Below, in pieces: positions 3,485-57,572 of a stretch of DNA of 64,000 bases. Source of the DNA: a virus (taxonomy: Duplodnaviria; Heunggongvirae; Uroviricota; Caudoviricetes); the IMG/VR virus record IMGVR_UViG_2681813318_000003. One strand, given 5' to 3'. The translations under genes and the position numbers were made by a program. The notes under the pieces were generated by a model. That model saw only the letters and a program-made list of their open reading frames with translations, ran no database searches and had not been told where the DNA came from. Positions within the stretch are counted from its first letter, which is position 1. Every line of letters starts with the position of its first letter.

Positions 3485-3781
3485 GTGTTTTCCTTAATGC
3501 TTAAACAAGTTGTTTTCTAATTGGATTTATTGTGATGTGGCATAAAAGGGGAGCAAGCTAAACGTAAAGGTGCAAACTCTCTATTTCGGTCAACGAAACA
3601 CAAGGGCCATTTGGCCCTTGTCATTAACACGTTGCTTTACGGACTAGCGGATAAGCGAAGTAGATCGCCAGGCCAATGAGGACGCCATCAGAAATGACAG
3701 ACATCATCTTTCCCGTAAAATCCACCAACACCGCCATCACCAGAAGAGCAATGACGGTCACAAGCCGGAATCTCTCAAGCA

Positions 3782-4207: not shown

Positions 4208-4300
4208 GTGTTTTCCTTTTATTATTTGTCAGAACAAGTTGTTTTCTAGTTTCATAAATTGCTTGCGCAAAGATGGTCAATGCATATGCACTAACAACCG

Positions 4301-6316: not shown

Positions 6317-6547
6317 TCATTGTGATTGATTATTTTCTCGACCATGTAGTTGAACATTCAAGGCAAACACCTCATTGATCAACTCACCTAAAAGCTGTTC
6401 AACAAGTTCGCGATGCTCGCCAAGATGCAAGCACTTAATTGCCCACTCGTACAAGTTGAAAGCCTGCTCACGATCTTTCATCATTTCACGAGCCTGGGCC
6501 AGAAAATCGCTCTCTACGAGCGCAACGACATTAGTCGGGTATGACAT
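6317..6547 (-). CDS. hypothetical protein
   Basis: Start moved to ATG 6545-6547, preceded by AAGGAAAC. Confidence 0.45.
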   Translation of the reverse strand: MSYPTNVVALVESDFLAQAREMMKDREQAFNLYEWAIKCLHLGEHRELVEQLLGELINEVFALNVQLHGRENNQSQ

Positions 6548-6652
6548 GTTGGTTTCCTTAAAGTGGTTCATAAAATCGATTTTAAAGCGTCTGGGAAGGG
6601 GTTCTAGTGGATTCTGTAGTGATGTTCAGGTCTGGAGTCTCTGATACAAAAC

Positions 6653-6711
6653 AGCCTGCTTCCGTATATTAATAATTAATATGTAGTTATTTATATATAC
6701 AGAAGCAGGCT
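6653..6711. repeat. inverted-repeat element (17-bp arms AGCCTGCTTCCGTATAT, AT-rich spacer), copy 1 of 2
   Basis: Near-identical element at 54331..54384; flanking GTTCTAGTGG-like sequence is also shared. Confidence 0.6.
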
Positions 6712-6732
6712 AATTACAGACGCCAGAACAAA

Positions 6733-7326
6733 CTAAGCAGCCTTCTTTGATGGTCTTTTTTTCCTGATCACATTCGCAGGATCATACCCTCCCAGACTTT
6801 TCATGACGTCCAAAGGGATCTTGCTTATAGAGTGCCCAGCGTCCTGACAGAATCCTCGAAAAACAACGAGCATACTGCCACCGGGGTTGATGTTTACTTC
6901 TACCTGACCCAAATTGACGTCAGGCTCGACAAACGCTACGCGGCCACCAGACAGAATAATCGTCTCATTCGCACACTCTGTTGCACGCTCATACCACTTT
7001 GTATCGAGGGATTGAGGAATTAGCATCACTGTTGTAACTCCGCGAGCCTGCTCACGTATAGCCGCATCAATCCAGGGGGAGATTTTGGAGTAGGGTGGAT
7101 TGAGGAAGGCAATTGTACCTGGCTGTCCCCATTCAGATTTCAAAGCATCACGCTCAACGCCTATGAAAATAGGCAGCTTTGCGTTGTCCTTGTTGCAGGC
7201 AACGTCAACATCAAATGTCACTCCAAGATAACGTTGAATGGCAGAAAACAGCCAATCAGGTGTTCTCCAGAGGTCACGAAGAGAGTTGTCGCGCTTTCGC
7301 TGTTTGATTTTTTCGGCTGCAATCAT
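6733..7326 (-). CDS. phage-type DNA N6-adenine methyltransferase (Dam-like)
   Basis: 197 aa with N-terminal WRTP and central NPPY motifs typical of the small phage Dam family. Confidence 0.75.
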   Translation of the reverse strand: MIAAEKIKQRKRDNSLRDLWRTPDWLFSAIQRYLGVTFDVDVACNKDNAKLPIFIGVERDALKSEWGQPGTIAFLNPPYSKISPWIDAAIREQARGVTTVMLIPQSLDTKWYERATECANETIILSGGRVAFVEPDVNLGQVEVNINPGGSMLVVFRGFCQDAGHSISKIPLDVMKSLGGYDPANVIRKKRPSKKAA

Positions 7327-8319: not shown

Positions 8320-8479
8320 GTAAGTCTCCTTCTGTTTAGTTGCATTTGCGTTTCGATGGCTACATTTTGACTAAACCTATCAGGCGGAAAAGTATTAAAT
8401 ACAGGCAGGAAATGATTGAAAGGCGACTGTTCTTTAAAAGAAAGCCTGCTTCAAACTCTCTTTAAAGCAGGCTTTTGTT

Positions 8480-9037
8480 TTACACAATTTCAGAGGGTAA
8501 TTTAAAAAATCCGTATTTATTACGTGCCTTAAAGAAGCATTGCATCATTAAGTTTGTGTCATATAAGGCACTATGTGCTTTGGCATGATCGTATATAAAG
8601 CCAAGAGAGAAGGCCAATTCTTCAAGGCGAGGACGTTTACCGTCTTCTGTGGCCCACAATCCCGATAACATAGTATCTATAACAGGAACTTCTGGCAGTC
8701 TTACTCCATACCCTGAAAACTCGTGTCGAATAAATGGTATATCAAACGCTTCGCCGTTATGAGCAATCCACGCACTACATGCCCCCATATAAGCGCCAAT
8801 TTCGCTGGCATGATTTGACAACAAAGGTTCAGCTGCGAGCTGTTCTAATGAAATGCCATGAACGGCTTGAGCTTTCGGATCTATGTTTCTGCGAGGGTTA
8901 AAACGCATCTCCAGACTATCAATATGTCTCTGTGTCTCCAGTTCATAGCGGGTAATTGCGATTTCAATAATTTTATGACCAGCAAGGAAATCCAGTCCCG
9001 TAGACTCGATATCGATGCCTGCAACAATCGTTGTCAT
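8480..9037 (-). CDS. DnaQ-like 3'-5' exonuclease (DEDDh family)
   Basis: Motifs DIESTGL, HNGEAFDIPF and HSALYD. Confidence 0.8.
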   Translation of the reverse strand: MTTIVAGIDIESTGLDFLAGHKIIEIAITRYELETQRHIDSLEMRFNPRRNIDPKAQAVHGISLEQLAAEPLLSNHASEIGAYMGACSAWIAHNGEAFDIPFIRHEFSGYGVRLPEVPVIDTMLSGLWATEDGKRPRLEELAFSLGFIYDHAKAHSALYDTNLMMQCFFKARNKYGFFKLPSEIV

Positions 9038-14424: not shown

Positions 14425-14528
14425 GTGTTTTCCTTTTGCTTATTGATGTGTTTAAACAAGTTGTTATCTTATTTGTTTAAACAAGGTTTACAAATCAAAG
14501 AGAAGGTGGGGATATCCCCCACCATATG

Positions 14529-26356: not shown

Positions 26357-26412
26357 GTTTTCTTATCCTTTTAAACAAATTGTTTTCTTAATAAGATAAT
26401 TGCGATAAAAAA

Positions 26413-38766: not shown

Positions 38767-38864
38767 GGCTAATCCTTTGTTATGAAAACAAATTATTTAC
38801 TAGTGTGTTTAATGTAGCACTGCGCGAACAGGGAACTAAGCCATTCGCGCAGGGAGAAGAGGGG

Positions 38865-53430: not shown

Positions 53431-53473
53431 GTGCTTTCCTTTGTTTTTTAAACAAATTGTTTTCTAGTATTAG

Positions 53474-54223
53474 TTAATTAGATAGGGGATCAATAAACCG
53501 CCGTGCTTCTTCCAGTTCTTCTGGAAAGTGGGCGGAAATAAGGCGCTCTGGAACGATTTCCATTAGCCAGATAGCGGAGAAAATTGCGCGTATGCGCTTG
53601 CTGCGAGGGATGGTGCGCAAACGCTCCAGAATCCACTCAAAATAGCTTTCCTGAATCGGGTTGAACTGCATGTCTCCCATATGCTTAAAGCTAACAAGAG
53701 AGTCATCCAGACGGGTTGTTGCGCGTCTGGCTAATTTCTCTTCGAATATCTCAACCAGCTCTGGCTGCCACAAATGCTGTGGGCGCGGCAGCTTGTCCCA
53801 CAGCCGTCGTGCAGCTGCGGAAAGAACGGTGGAGATAAAGTAGTCGTATGAGCAGCAATAGCGGTCAGCAAACTGGCGTGCTTTCCATAGAGACGTTTTA
53901 TTGGCAGTCGACAACTCCTGATAAGGCAGGCGTTTTAACCCGGTGGTGAACGGAGCTGTTTCAAAGTGTTCGCGACCGTGCGTCAGCATGATATTTGAGT
54001 ACTGACGTTTGTATGCCTCCGTAAACAGACAGGTGGCCATAAGAGGATGCATGTCTCGGTAATCAAACCACTTCGTCTCGAAGAGTTCAGCCTCGTCTTT
54101 ACAGCGCGACAAACCAATGTTTTCAGCGACCCACTTGTCCATAACAGCGGTATTCCACTCTGTCATGAAGTCGTACTGGTCGTTGTCGATGGTATCGAAA
54201 AAGATTTGGCTCATGTGGCTCAC
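53474..54223 (-). CDS. hypothetical protein (first gene of the helicase-primase operon)
   Basis: 249-aa ORF. Confidence 0.5.
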   Translation of the reverse strand: MSHMSQIFFDTIDNDQYDFMTEWNTAVMDKWVAENIGLSRCKDEAELFETKWFDYRDMHPLMATCLFTEAYKRQYSNIMLTHGREHFETAPFTTGLKRLPYQELSTANKTSLWKARQFADRYCCSYDYFISTVLSAAARRLWDKLPRPQHLWQPELVEIFEEKLARRATTRLDDSLVSFKHMGDMQFNPIQESYFEWILERLRTIPRSKRIRAIFSAIWLMEIVPERLISAHFPEELEEARRFIDPLSN

Positions 54224-54330
54224 CTGGTAGGTAGTTACTTACTTATCACAATGGACGGATGATAGCGACTGGTGTCAGTTTTTGGAAGTGAAAACGGAAG
54301 GGAGTTGTTCTGGTGGTGTCTTTTAAAAGA

Positions 54331-54384
54331 CCTGCTTCCGTATATATTTAATAAGTTACTTATTATTTATATACAGAAACAGGC
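54331..54384. repeat. inverted-repeat element, copy 2 of 2 (paralogue of 6653..6711)
   Basis: CCTGCTTCCGTATAT...ATATACAGAAACAGG with a similar AT-rich spacer and similar upstream flank. Confidence 0.6.
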
Positions 54385-54488
54385 TCCTAATGGATACCAA
54401 GAACAACATAATTTGACTCCAACTCCAGATGCTATGTCATTGACAGATTTATCAAGGGAGATCATGTTAGAATTAGTGTTTTAGCCTC

Positions 54489-55562
54489 GTGGATATTGTC
54501 ACCATGCGCATGAATAGACTTCCAGGATATGGCCTTCCCGAACTGGCTTTTTGGCCTCAGCCTAAATATGAACGGAATAAATGGTCGATGTTCTGTCTGA
54601 AACTCCGTAATGATGGAACCCTTGCTTGGTATCGGCGATATGTTGATCGTGGTATGCCAAACCACGCTGTTGATGACGACTACGATAACTATCCTGAAGC
54701 AAGAAAAGCGGCATTAGAGCTGAATAAAAACGTGAGCTTTGACATTGAAAAACTTCCTCTATCTATGTTTCAAAAGAAGTCATTGCGTTTGAAAGTTGAC
54801 AAAGCACTCAAAGCCAAATCACGTCTCATGGATGAAGAGTATATAATGCTCAACGAAGCAATTAAGGCACACGCCAACGATCCGCGAGTGACATTAAATG
54901 AGTTAATAATTAACCCAGATTACGAAACTTTGCGTCAACCCCTTTTTGACGTGCTAAGCGAGATGCCTTACTTACATTTTGTTTTTCTTCCCAAATTCCA
55001 AGTTTCACTTCAACTCGTTGCTCCTAACACTTGGGAATGTTCATATAACAACAAAGCTAAGACAGCGAAGATCTGCTACCAAGAACGCATAGCCAGAGGT
55101 TTTGGTTTATCAGGTGCTGCACATTGGGGAAAAACAAAAGCGACTATTCGCTCAATGCTGCTGCCGCGTGCTAACCGGTTACTGCAACTCGCCAGCGTAA
55201 AAAGAATGCTGGATGAAGCTCTCAGGAATGGGCAAAAGGTACTGGTTGTTGGCAACTTTGTTTTCTGGTTTGAGGACAAAAATCAGGTAGGTTGGAGTGT
55301 TAAAGTTGCTAGCGAAAGCGAAACCACCTCAAGAGGCAATACGCTCTGGAAAGAAGGAACTATCATTTCAAAAAATCACGGTCGAATTGTCGTGCTGCCG
55401 TATACAAAAGAAAACGGTAAACATGTAAAAGGTTATACCAAGAATGCCCCTAACGACGGCAATGCAATTCCGAGACATAAGGATGAGTATGTTGAGTTGC
55501 CCTTTGAAATTTTGGATGGTGACTTGATGTTCAGTCTGTTCGGTGAGCTTAACTACGAATAG
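54489..55562 (+). CDS. hypothetical protein
   Basis: 357-aa plus-strand ORF between the replication operon and the par genes. Confidence 0.5.
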   Translation: MDIVTMRMNRLPGYGLPELAFWPQPKYERNKWSMFCLKLRNDGTLAWYRRYVDRGMPNHAVDDDYDNYPEARKAALELNKNVSFDIEKLPLSMFQKKSLRLKVDKALKAKSRLMDEEYIMLNEAIKAHANDPRVTLNELIINPDYETLRQPLFDVLSEMPYLHFVFLPKFQVSLQLVAPNTWECSYNNKAKTAKICYQERIARGFGLSGAAHWGKTKATIRSMLLPRANRLLQLASVKRMLDEALRNGQKVLVVGNFVFWFEDKNQVGWSVKVASESETTSRGNTLWKEGTIISKNHGRIVVLPYTKENGKHVKGYTKNAPNDGNAIPRHKDEYVELPFEILDGDLMFSLFGELNYE

Positions 55563-55622
55563 CTTTCATAGAACGAAATATTTCTAAGGCTGTCCAATGC
55601 AGACCAGCCTTAGAGATTTATA

Positions 55623-55982
55623 TCAACCTTTCTTCATTAACTCGCGTTTAATTTCATCGGTACGCATCGTGACATCGGCAGCAGTGATCGCCTCGTTAAG
55701 CTTCACGATGTCCTCGATTTCCTGCGGTGACTTCTCTGCCAGATGGAAAATGGCTGCTCGAATCACGTCAGAACGAGTGAACTTCTCGAAGCGAGGGATG
55801 AACTTCATCATCTCCAGCAGTTCGAAGTATTCGTCTTCCAGTGACATTGTGCGGCTTTTAATTTTCTCTTTGCCACGAGTCGGGCGTCCCTGTGGTCTGA
55901 CTGGTTGGCGCAAAGGAGTTGTGTTCTTAGCCGGTGCATCAGGCTCTTTGCGCTTTGCTAGGTCACCCATTTTCATGGACAT
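55623..55982 (-). CDS. putative partition protein (small ParB/ParG-like partner of ParA)
   Basis: 119-aa basic/acidic protein immediately downstream of parA; assignment by position only. Confidence 0.45.
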   Translation of the reverse strand: MSMKMGDLAKRKEPDAPAKNTTPLRQPVRPQGRPTRGKEKIKSRTMSLEDEYFELLEMMKFIPRFEKFTRSDVIRAAIFHLAEKSPQEIEDIVKLNEAITAADVTMRTDEIKRELMKKG

Positions 55983-56650
55983 TATTCTTCTTCCTCCAGA
56001 CTCAACAGATAATCTACAAATTCTTCAAACTCGGCTTCCGCCTTTTTGTCGCGCTCGCTACCGGTCATTTCAAAGATAGAACGACCAGACTCTTCCGCAT
56101 CATCATAGACGTTGCGGTTATATAGATTGACTGGCGCAGACTCGATGCCAAACGTCTCAACAATCTCTTTAGCCGCCAGAATGCGAGACACTTGTGATGG
56201 CAAAGCCGGGCACTGGTTCATGACCGCGCGGACCTTCACTTTATCGTTTACATTACGAACATTGTCGATAATAGGATCAATGTCACGCAGAGATTTCAAA
56301 TCACGACGCTTAGGACGAAGCGGGATAATGATAACGTCGGCCATCAGCATCGCTTGTCGCTGAATTTCGGAGTCAAAGCCACCAGCATCTACCACTACAA
56401 ACTCAGCTCTACCCTGAAGCGATTTTAGGTGCTTAATGATGTCATCCTGAACGTATGCAAAAGGAATCAGCTCAAGGTCTTCGTTCTGTCGACGGTCTTC
56501 ACACCAGCTTGTTGTCGTGCGCTGAATATCTATATCAGTGATATAAACCTTCTTCTTCTTTTTGACTTTCAGGCAAACGGCAATTTGCTGGGCAACGGTG
56601 GATTTGCCAGGCCCGCCCTTTGTGCCGCCAACCACAAAGATCTTGGTCAT
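55982..56650 (-). CDS. parA: ParA-family partition ATPase
   Basis: Deviant Walker A GGTKGGPGKST; 222 aa. Confidence 0.85.
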   Translation of the reverse strand: MTKIFVVGGTKGGPGKSTVAQQIAVCLKVKKKKKVYITDIDIQRTTTSWCEDRRQNEDLELIPFAYVQDDIIKHLKSLQGRAEFVVVDAGGFDSEIQRQAMLMADVIIIPLRPKRRDLKSLRDIDPIIDNVRNVNDKVKVRAVMNQCPALPSQVSRILAAKEIVETFGIESAPVNLYNRNVYDDAEESGRSIFEMTGSERDKKAEAEFEEFVDYLLSLEEEE

Positions 56651-56775
56651 TGGAGAGTTCCCTTTGCGTATATAATTATCGTCTGAAACAACTTGTTTTC
56701 TTATATGTGATATAGCCTAAATGCCTACGGCTGCGGTGTAAAGGTTTAATGATAGGTACATAGGTGGGCTTAATA

Positions 56776-56797
56776 ACAAAAAACCCGCCGTAGCGGG
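56776..56797 (-). terminator. rho-independent terminator CCCGC-CGTA-GCGGG
   Basis: Minus-strand read has the hairpin followed by TTTTTTGTT, directly after the 56799 stop. Confidence 0.7.
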
Positions 56798-56798
56798 T

Positions 56799-57572
56799 TT
56801 ATTGATTCATAGATCGTTTACTCAGAATGTTCACTATATGAGTACAAGCACCTGGGGTGAGATTGATTTTATTAGTCCCCCACTCTTCACGTCTTCGCAT
56901 CTGGCCTCCGTCAGACTTACCGATATCCCACGGAATAAAACCACTTACGCCACAGGCATCCTCACCCAATTCCTCTATAAAATTTTCGTTCTTCGTATCG
57001 TAAATTTCGACCAGTCCATGTTTGCGCATACTCACAGCCCAAAGAGTTGCGCCTTTTATCGTCTGTAACGTATCGCAAACCAAGTATTGATACTTATCTA
57101 CGAGATAAAGGTAAGCAAAACTTGCGATGCCTAATCCCATATAATCAGCATGAGTAAAAACCCCTCTAATCTGCTTGGCGCTGACTTTTACTCCAGATTT
57201 ATCCTTGATTGGAAACTCGCAGTAGGCCACGCGGAAGACTGTTTGGACTGGCTGCCCCACATGCAACTTGTAGGATTCAATTTCTGCTCCTATCTCAAGA
57301 GGTGTGTAACCAGCACGTTTGAGTCGCTTAACTTCCTGCTCTTGGTAATCAGGATCACATGACTCAAGACACTCGCCAACAATACAGCGTTCATAGGCCG
57401 AATCAACAAGCTCGTATTCGGTAAATCGAATTAGATCGAAACCTCGGGAGATAAAATAGAACTCACCGAGAGCGATAATTCTCGTCGCTCTCGGCATTTC
57501 AGACAAGACCTTGCTGTAGTCTTCTATTTCAGGGATTAATCTGTTCGCCTGACCAATTAGAGATGGTGCCAT
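56799..57572 (-). CDS. hypothetical protein, possibly acetyltransferase-like
   Basis: 257 aa; HADYMGLGIASFAY resembles a GNAT motif A; weak. Confidence 0.45.
   Translation of the reverse strand: MAPSLIGQANRLIPEIEDYSKVLSEMPRATRIIALGEFYFISRGFDLIRFTEYELVDSAYERCIVGECLESCDPDYQEQEVKRLKRAGYTPLEIGAEIESYKLHVGQPVQTVFRVAYCEFPIKDKSGVKVSAKQIRGVFTHADYMGLGIASFAYLYLVDKYQYLVCDTLQTIKGATLWAVSMRKHGLVEIYDTKNENFIEELGEDACGVSGFIPWDIGKSDGGQMRRREEWGTNKINLTPGACTHIVNILSKRSMNQ

Follow-up and report, generated by a model that had tools for sequence, protein, structure and literature searches.

Introduction

The usual intrinsic terminator has a stem of 5–14 bp and a loop of 3–8 nt. The stoperators of mycobacteriophage L5, the C1 operators of P1, the KorB sites of RK2 and IR1-4 of N15 are dispersed sites of another kind, 13–17 bp in length, each recognized by a known protein; N15 has four of them, and most of the systems from about a dozen to several dozen. 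The PeSL elements (promoter-early plus stem-loop) of T4-type phages were reportedly described by Arbiol, Comeau and Krisch in 2010 as "mobile regulatory cassettes". The elements analyzed here resemble each of these systems in part.

Phage-plasmids of the SSU5/pHCM2/pMT1 type, frequent in E. coli, Klebsiella, Salmonella and Yersinia, bring with them cargo for resistance and toxin-antitoxin functions; their plasmid and cargo genes are expressed, and lytic genes amounting to about 100 kb are kept silent. A trio of long hairpins at the boundaries of their modules offers concrete, testable cis-elements by which this insulation might be achieved. Most likely, the trio is a previously undescribed but fairly ordinary kind of regulatory signal; in the searched literature on SSU5, pHCM2 and phage-plasmids, the SSU5 genome note aside, we found no description of these elements.

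Genomic context and the two elements of the window

The closest match to the window, that is, the whole stretch of 64,000 nt that was analyzed, is Escherichia phage Cyrano (pLF82), with 97–98.5% identity in both element regions by megablast; Salmonella phage SSU5 and several Klebsiella phage-plasmids match it at ~77–80%. The window thus represents a phage-plasmid of the SSU5/pHCM2 type. Since almost all genes of the window are located on the minus strand, this strand is regarded below as the sense one.

The initial annotation had reported a pair of paralogous inverted-repeat elements, and this pair, designated A and B (Table 1), is borne out by its arms, by searches with mismatches, by profile searches and by folding. 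The arms of A (6653-6669 and 6695-6711) are 17 nt long, 94% complementary and separated by a 25-nt AT-only spacer, itself partly self-complementary, while those of B (54331-54356 and 54358-54383) are 26 nt long, 85% complementary and have 1 nt between them. The left arm CCTGCTTCCGTATAT, 15 nt, is identical in A and B. A search for the arm with up to two mismatches returned five matches in the window, four of them being the arms of A and B; with up to three mismatches there were seven matches against 1.26 expected, a number reached in none of 100 shuffles. A profile built from 67 unique family members recognized only A and B in the 64 kb (E = 3e-27 and 2e-25). Both elements fold far better than shuffled sequences on either strand (z = -6.2 to -8.9), the sense-strand values being -6.2 for A and -8.9 for B, and their flanks are partly alike and partly self-complementary (TTCTGG..GTCT / AGAC..CCAGAA). 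A and B are real paralogous AT-rich palindromes of ~55 bp with GC-rich bases.

As to the neighboring genes, the stop codon of the Dam methylase gene (6733-6735) is located 22 nt before hairpin A, in the same orientation. The initial annotation placed each element 40–100 nt upstream of a minus-strand gene start; the distances to the start codons in fact amount to ~106 nt for A and ~117 nt for B, the latter counted from the real ATG (54214), near which there is also a GTG at 54223. On the other side of B, parA and its small partner gene (55623..56650, minus strand) constitute a lysogenically expressed operon, the transcripts of which run towards B. The 119-aa product of the partner gene is annotated in Cyrano as a RelE/ParE toxin and gave no Pfam or PDB match here; its position suggests a possible role as the centromere-binding partner of the small ParA. 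Searches of three neighboring small proteins against PDB sequences yielded no matches. A perfect 12-bp palindrome, AAAATCGATTTT, was noticed at 6572-6583, ~25 nt ahead of the start of the small gene that follows A, and the alignment shows the block around it to be conserved in SSU5 and the Klebsiella relatives.

Table 1. Coordinates of elements A and B, their parts and the adjacent genes in the window
Feature	Position	Strand	Description
Element A core	6653..6711	-	59-nt hairpin/palindrome; plus-strand arms AGCCTGCTTCCGTATAT / ATATACAGAAGCAGGCT
U-run after hairpin A	6646..6652	-	directly 3' of the stem; minus strand GUUUUGU
Outer arm of A	6630..6645	-	GTCTGGAGTCTCTGAT on plus strand; partly complementary to 6713-6728
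Partner outer arm of A	6713..6728	-	ATTACAGACGCCAGAA on plus strand; from the fold
Dam-type adenine methyltransferase gene	6733..7326	-	Pfam PF05869, E = 1.7e-37; Cyrano annotation
First gene past A	6317..6547	-	76 aa, phrog_5343; start 106 nt beyond the hairpin
Element B core	54331..54383	-	53-nt near-perfect palindrome
Tail after hairpin B	54320..54330	-	minus strand UCUUUUAAAAG; U-run at ~54325-54328
Outer arm of B	54305..54318	-	TTGTTCTGGTGGTG on plus strand; complementary to 54392-54406
Partner outer arm of B	54392..54406	-	GGATACCAAGAACAA on plus strand; in the variable cargo-side flank
First gene past B	53474..54214	-	246 aa, phrog_2500; heads the DnaB-like helicase / primase replication module
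Variable cargo slot bounded by B	54385..55622		here, plus-strand ORF 54489-55562, phrog_22329
Small partner gene of parA	55623-55982	-	119 aa
parA	55982-56650	-	lysogenically expressed together with its partner gene

Copy number and distribution

Further copies, the search for which had been proposed as a check of the initial annotation, do exist: there is a third one per genome, and hundreds occur in relatives. A half-site search of Cyrano beyond the region of the window revealed the third copy, C, which spans the artificial ends of the linear record and starts 25 nt past the stop of a small gene, with the small terminase gene following at ~115 nt. In the other 46 kb of Cyrano, the profile recognized C only which, together with A and B of the window, gives three copies per genome. 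All three have a single orientation relative to the genes, and their spacing around the circle is ~31, 47 and 30 kb. In Cyrano, 22–25 nt separate each of the three cores from the preceding stop codon, and over 100 nt separate it from the following start.

The pattern CCTGNNTNNGTATA-N15-40-TATACNNANNCAGG matched at least 120 stretches of IMG/VR, every one of which is a true family member. The same pattern was run over one genome per species (185,579 species), where members were confined to SSU5-like contigs and the remaining matches were unrelated palindromes. Two Kluyvera genomes contain three copies each, in one case all on a single contig of ~109 kb; the other members come from Buttiauxella, from Yersinia pestis pMT1 and from two contigs of one MAG. 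The flanks divide all members into three syntenic classes: class A follows the methylase gene, class B precedes the phrog_2500-helicase-primase module, and class C precedes terS. Neither the IMG/VR scan nor that of the species genomes revealed any chromosomal or non-syntenic copy.

Anatomy of the sense-strand hairpins

In the RNA read from the genes' own strand, the base of the stem is GC-rich (AGCCUGC/GCAGGCU) and its upper part consists of A-U pairs only. The predicted folding energy of A with 10-nt flanks is nearly the same for the two strands (-27.8 kcal/mol for the minus-strand RNA and -27.0 for the plus-strand one). As for B with its flanks, the minus-strand RNA (-31.7 kcal/mol) is 9.5 kcal/mol more stable than the plus-strand RNA (-22.2), because both arm mismatches are U.G pairs in the former.

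The stem is followed by a run of U residues. The T-run after A is preserved in nearly all class-A orthologues (CTTTTTAAGA, CTGTTTTGTA, CTTTTCCTTG, TTTTTTGTAG and others), and at least seven class-A flank variants have this run in common, the remaining flank having diverged. Among the 15 unique tail variants of class B, 12 contain TCTTTT and three have other T-rich or non-T tails. On average, the first 10 nt past the stem contain 5.5 (A) and 5.4 (B) T residues on the sense strand vs. 3.2 and 4.1, respectively, on the antisense one. The tract itself is short, with four U only in A and B, and in class C of the SSU5 core group neither strand shows a U-run.

Outside the core there is a second, outer pair of arms. 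Since the outer arm of A lies beyond the U-run, its pairing in RNA is possible only in read-through transcripts. This pairing is significant for the B variant of the window (L039_B; z = -2.1, p = 0.02) and not significant for the E. coli-type A (L031_A, the flanks of which are identical to those of the window; z = -1.0); it is strong in A of SSU5 and Klebsiella and in all copies of C (GTCTGGGAG / CTCCCAGAC). In total, flank-to-flank pairing is significant in all 13 variants of C, in 9 of 17 variants of A and in 4 of 19 variants of B. Considered as a general promoter motif, CTCCCAGAC is not enriched in the window (11 matches vs. 9.4 expected).

Long inverted repeats also occur elsewhere in the window: three of them (44119-44196, 45119-45240 and 45312-45400) surround a cluster of three tRNA genes (44609-44852), and two of the three share arms of the form CACA(A/G)CGTTGAG.

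Conservation of the core

On the sense strand, the arm mismatches of 36 representatives comprise 23 U.G and 8 C.A; the excess of U.G could result from a C-to-T mutation bias on the non-template strand. An instructive case is element B of Klebsiella phage p4727, in which the DNA symmetry is lost at 5 of 14 arm positions while the sense-RNA pairing is retained by means of four wobbles and is followed by a tail of five U. Across the variants, comparison of sense and antisense stability showed no uniform strand bias, the antisense RNA of class A being slightly more stable in 13 cases of 18. RNAalifold and counting of covariations revealed almost no covariation and one clear compensatory pair; because the arms are nearly invariant, covariation is uninformative on the structure, for or against.

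When the terS-linked C loci were picked by synteny, 73 of 74 still fitted the strict pattern, and in these loci the arm positions fixed by the pattern were unchanged, only positions 6, 8 and 9 being variable. The whole core of C, including most of its AT-rich part, is more conserved than the synonymous sites of the neighboring genes. The least conserved core position is the apex nucleotide of the loop, which alone varies freely. C is also the best conserved and most extended palindrome of the three (~110–130 bp). In one lineage A, B and C all possess the same unusual centre (TTAAATAATAAAT...), which indicates gene conversion. A long stem as such slows down single-site change, and gene conversion homogenizes the copies. 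So slow an evolution of the core is more than termination alone requires, and selection on the hairpin beyond termination, or a specific binding factor, may also be involved.

Element B and the cargo slot

The cargo gene of the window (phrog_22329, 357 aa) is shared with Klebsiella phage-plasmids, with ~79% DNA identity. The nearest E. coli relatives lack it and have unrelated genes in its place, and the genes that fill the slot in Cyrano and PhiR41_1 are likewise unrelated. The arm of B that faces the cargo is exactly where homology among the relatives stops. On this side, B adjoins at least 14 different sequences in public contigs, as against two variants on the other side, and is therefore the fixed edge of an accessory-gene hotspot. 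It divides the expressed parA/cargo unit from the replication genes and, as such an edge, would be useful for annotation and for the engineering of insertion sites. As B borders a cassette-like slot, an attC-like nature was also considered and rejected: inspection by eye found no R'/R'' GTTRRRY boxes, and there is no integrase context.

Transcription across the elements

Per-gene RNA-seq values (FPKM) are available for ten samples of lysogens of Cyrano, the 98%-identical relative (PMC9928086, S1 Table). In these lysogens parA, CYRAN_29 and the cargo gene CYRAN_30 have log2 FPKM of 5.2–10.8, and CYRAN_31, the phrog_2500 orthologue, stays at background (2.3–4.2) in 10 samples of 10 (PMC9928086). 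CYRAN_31 is on the same strand as CYRAN_30, 193 nt downstream, and the gap between them holds only B. Judged from the per-gene values, the drop of RNA across B in Cyrano reaches ~200-fold (~8- to 230-fold depending on the sample; e.g., from 10.42 to 2.56). Thus, in the plasmid-prophage state, transcription or stable RNA ends at or near B. In the same per-gene data the drop across C is ~2–4-fold, and the values around A are uninformative, both of its neighbors being at background.

Probable terminator or insulator hairpins at module boundaries

On balance, we consider it probable that A and B are intrinsic terminator or insulator hairpins, each of which closes one transcription unit at a module boundary. 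The mechanism could be as follows. RNA polymerase arriving from the upstream unit (the Dam methylase gene and the genes before it in the case of A, the lysogenically expressed parA operon and whatever cargo fills the slot in the case of B) would transcribe the GC-clamped AT-rich hairpin of 17–26 bp and UUUU and release the transcript. The next module would be kept silent in the plasmid-prophage state; past A this would concern the small gene and the RNase H region, and past B the phrog_2500-helicase-primase replication module. The likeness of the three copies could be kept by the constraint of the long stem along with occasional gene conversion, and the conserved core of B might double as a fixed homologous edge for swaps of accessory genes. 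The drop at B probably reflects intrinsic termination, A probably behaves in the same way, and the junctions at B may point to its role in recombination.

The position and polarity of the copies, co-oriented with the almost unidirectional genome, support the terminator reading, as does the variability of the loop apex, expected of a hairpin. Both A and B form a stable GC-containing hairpin. Their dimensions are, however, not those of typical terminators, since the stems of 17–26 bp have internal mismatches and an A-U-only upper part; neither element was called by a simple consensus terminator scan, the model of which is too narrow for such stems. The overlong stem, the shortness of the four-U tract and the existence of the U-less C speak against termination. 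It should also be noted that no co-oriented stop codon precedes B in this window, the cargo gene before it being antisense-oriented.

More distant relatives provide a further argument. In plasmids of K. michiganensis and K. oxytoca, whose TerS proteins are 59–65% identical, the C site is occupied by a degenerate copy (GCCTGATTCTGTATG...) followed by T8 or T5-T6. K. michiganensis has short canonical GC hairpins with T-runs after the methylase gene and before the phrog_2500 gene; at these A and B sites the canonical hairpins are adjoined by half-element remnants, the relative being a decayed mosaic plasmid. At the B site of K. oxytoca, a canonical GC-hairpin/T-run terminator serves the cargo gene and is followed by a degenerate palindrome devoid of a U-run. 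The occurrence of ordinary terminators in these relatives indicates that the places of A, B and C are terminator positions in the wider family.

Several other terminator-like structures were noticed. A canonical bidirectional hairpin at 8436-8480 (AAAGCCTGCTTCAAA / TTTAAAGCAGGCTTT), with T-runs on both strands, is located between the exonuclease gene and the next gene, and the base of its stem, AGCCTGCTT/AAGCAGGCT, is the same as in A and B. An ordinary short terminator is present on the minus strand at 56777-56804 (ACCCGC-tacg-GCGGGT followed by TTTTTTG), just before the parA promoter region, so the genome uses standard terminators too. Directly before the start codon of terS in Cyrano (L007, positions 98-127; also L209 and L212), there is a conserved hairpin, AGAGCGC-atggac-GCGCTCT, followed by GTGTGTTTT; even the Acinetobacter relatives retain this hairpin, which may serve as a regulated terminator within the late-operon leader.

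Alternative explanations

We think it unlikely that the elements act primarily as DNA-level palindromes bound by a protein of the phage-plasmid or of the host, possibly on a cruciform or a bent AT-rich centre, whether as a roadblock (stoperator-like), an operator or a dispersed centromere/structuring site, such as the sopC-like repeats of N15. Conservation of the primary sequence rather than covariation, as in the 73 of 74 C loci, the absence of a U-run in C and the spread of the three copies round the circle would all suit protein binding. The genome encodes ParA, a ParB-family protein and several DNA-binding proteins, and a bound roadblock could likewise produce the drop across B. On the other hand, the half-sites are non-palindromic themselves, with their centres ~40 bp apart, and the U-run is conserved on one side only. 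In p4727, moreover, the DNA palindrome has decayed while the pairing of the sense RNA and the U-tail were kept, and the distant relatives have ordinary terminators at these places. The obvious dispersed operator of this genome is a different motif, AAACAANTTGTTT.

This motif is a 13-bp palindrome with eight matches in the window at up to one mismatch vs. 0.49 expected (2786-2798, 3503-3515, 4232-4244, 14454-14466, 26373-26385, 38786-38798, 53450-53462 and 56686-56698). All eight are intergenic and lie 13–36 nt upstream of minus-strand starts, those of parA and the helicase gene included. In the part of Cyrano outside the window there are nine matches vs. 0.17 expected, plus two between C and terS. 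From its sequence distribution, AAACAANTTGTTT looks like the dispersed operator of a global regulator, and a stoperator-like role in this genome fits it better than the hairpins.

Similarly doubtful, in our opinion, is a dedicated sequence-specific switch, in which a putative factor of the phage-plasmid would recognize the 55-nt core. Such a factor might be an RNA-binding antiterminator, a processing factor or a cruciform-binding protein; the boundaries, closed in the plasmid-prophage state, would be opened or processed in lytic growth, and the U-less extended C before terS would act as the gate to the late/packaging operon.

It is rather improbable that the main role of the hairpins lies in processing or stability of RNA, i.e., that they are RNase III sites or protective 3' hairpins setting the half-lives of mRNA between the modules. 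The predicted duplex, at least 20 bp with an A-U-rich upper stem, has the length that RNase III would need, the outer arms pair only in read-through RNA (significantly in 13 variants of C and in 9 of 17 of A), and C has the hairpin without a U-run. However, the outer pairing is absent from most B variants (significant in 4 of 19) and weak in A of the window, and termination is the simpler explanation of both the drop across B and the conserved U-run. The two readings can coexist, processing by RNase III being compatible with the terminator function.

A function of the DNA hairpin or cruciform in replication or packaging, such as a priming/helicase-loading signal, a secondary origin or a relative of pac, with C as the master copy, seems very improbable. 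It is suggested by the position of B directly upstream of the helicase/primase module and of C directly upstream of terS, by the AT-only centre between GC clamps, and by the linear records of SSU5 (JQ965645) and Cyrano (OV696614), both of which are opened in the loop of C, at nearly the same nucleotide, ~133 nt upstream of terS. Yet TerL belongs to the Terminase_6N/Terminase_3 type, suggesting headful packaging without fixed cos ends, and many IMG/VR contigs end 60–140 nt from a copy, as would be expected of assembly breaks at a three-copy repeat; hence the opening of the records in C is probably artefactual. Other contigs continue across C without interruption, A and B are distant from terS, and additional internal sites for terminase or origin function would harm the genome. 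The GC skew is monotonic, with no switch at A or B, and is uninformative about origins. The one-sided U-run would also be left unexplained. As for the record of Klebsiella phage p4727, its start was considered as a physical end and discarded, having been chosen by its authors at a start codon.

The general suggestion of the initial annotation that A and B are duplicated cis-regulatory modules near the adjacent genes stands, but its three specific proposals (a miniature mobile element, a small RNA gene or a duplicated promoter-operator), with which the terminal inverted repeats, the presence of several copies and the intergenic position upstream of genes would agree, are hardly credible: the same three syntenic sites are occupied in every lineage without presence/absence polymorphism, none of the 185,579 species genomes has a copy outside SSU5-like phage-plasmids, and the flanks of A and B contain no direct repeat or target-site duplication, so that, chromosomal and non-syntenic copies being absent too, mobility is unsupported; Rfam at gathering thresholds recognized only three tRNAs in the window and no family at the elements, which have no promoter of their own, A beginning as close as 22 nt past a stop codon; and the consensus promoter scan gave nothing at B and, at A, one weak 9/12 match on the plus strand, antisense to the genes and within chance numbers, the distance between the half-site centres being likewise at odds with an operator.

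Comparison with known systems

If the hairpins are terminators only, they are an addition at the level of annotation; a more specific regulatory mechanism might, however, lie behind their unusual length, their conservation and the absence of a U-run from the copy before terS.

Like ERIC/IRU and other MITE-like palindromes of Enterobacteria, the elements are imperfect, intergenic and transcribed, reach ~100–130 bp and fold as RNA; unlike them, they have fixed syntenic sites, no chromosomal copies and no signs of mobility, and there is no sequence relationship between the two groups. With stoperators, operators and centromere sites they share a dispersed, oriented, intergenic and sequence-conserved arrangement and, probably, the task of keeping lytic modules silent, but they are long hairpins with a U-run and only three in number.

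The lambda tI/sib region and the RNase III sites of T7 are similar in that a terminator hairpin can be extended past its U-run into a long duplex with an internal loop, and in the repetition of such structures in the intergenic gaps along an extended polycistronic phage genome. In our case not all variants have the outer pairing (always in C, partly in A, rarely in B), and cleavage is only hypothetical here.

The PeSL cassettes are likewise repeated conserved intergenic stem-loops that flank a hyperplastic region and whose homology allows swaps of accessory genes. In contrast to them, no promoter was detected in the hairpin cassette, the copies are only three and occupy fixed places, and recombination at the hairpin is deduced here from the junctions.

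With the intrinsic (Rho-independent) terminators of Enterobacteria and their phages the elements share a GC-rich stem base followed by a U-run, a location ~22–25 nt past a stop codon, and a sharp fall of downstream RNA in the close relative. What sets the elements apart is the AT-topped stem of 17–26 bp, the tract of four U, the three near-identical paralogues maintained across genera, and the fact that C has lost the U-run and kept the hairpin.
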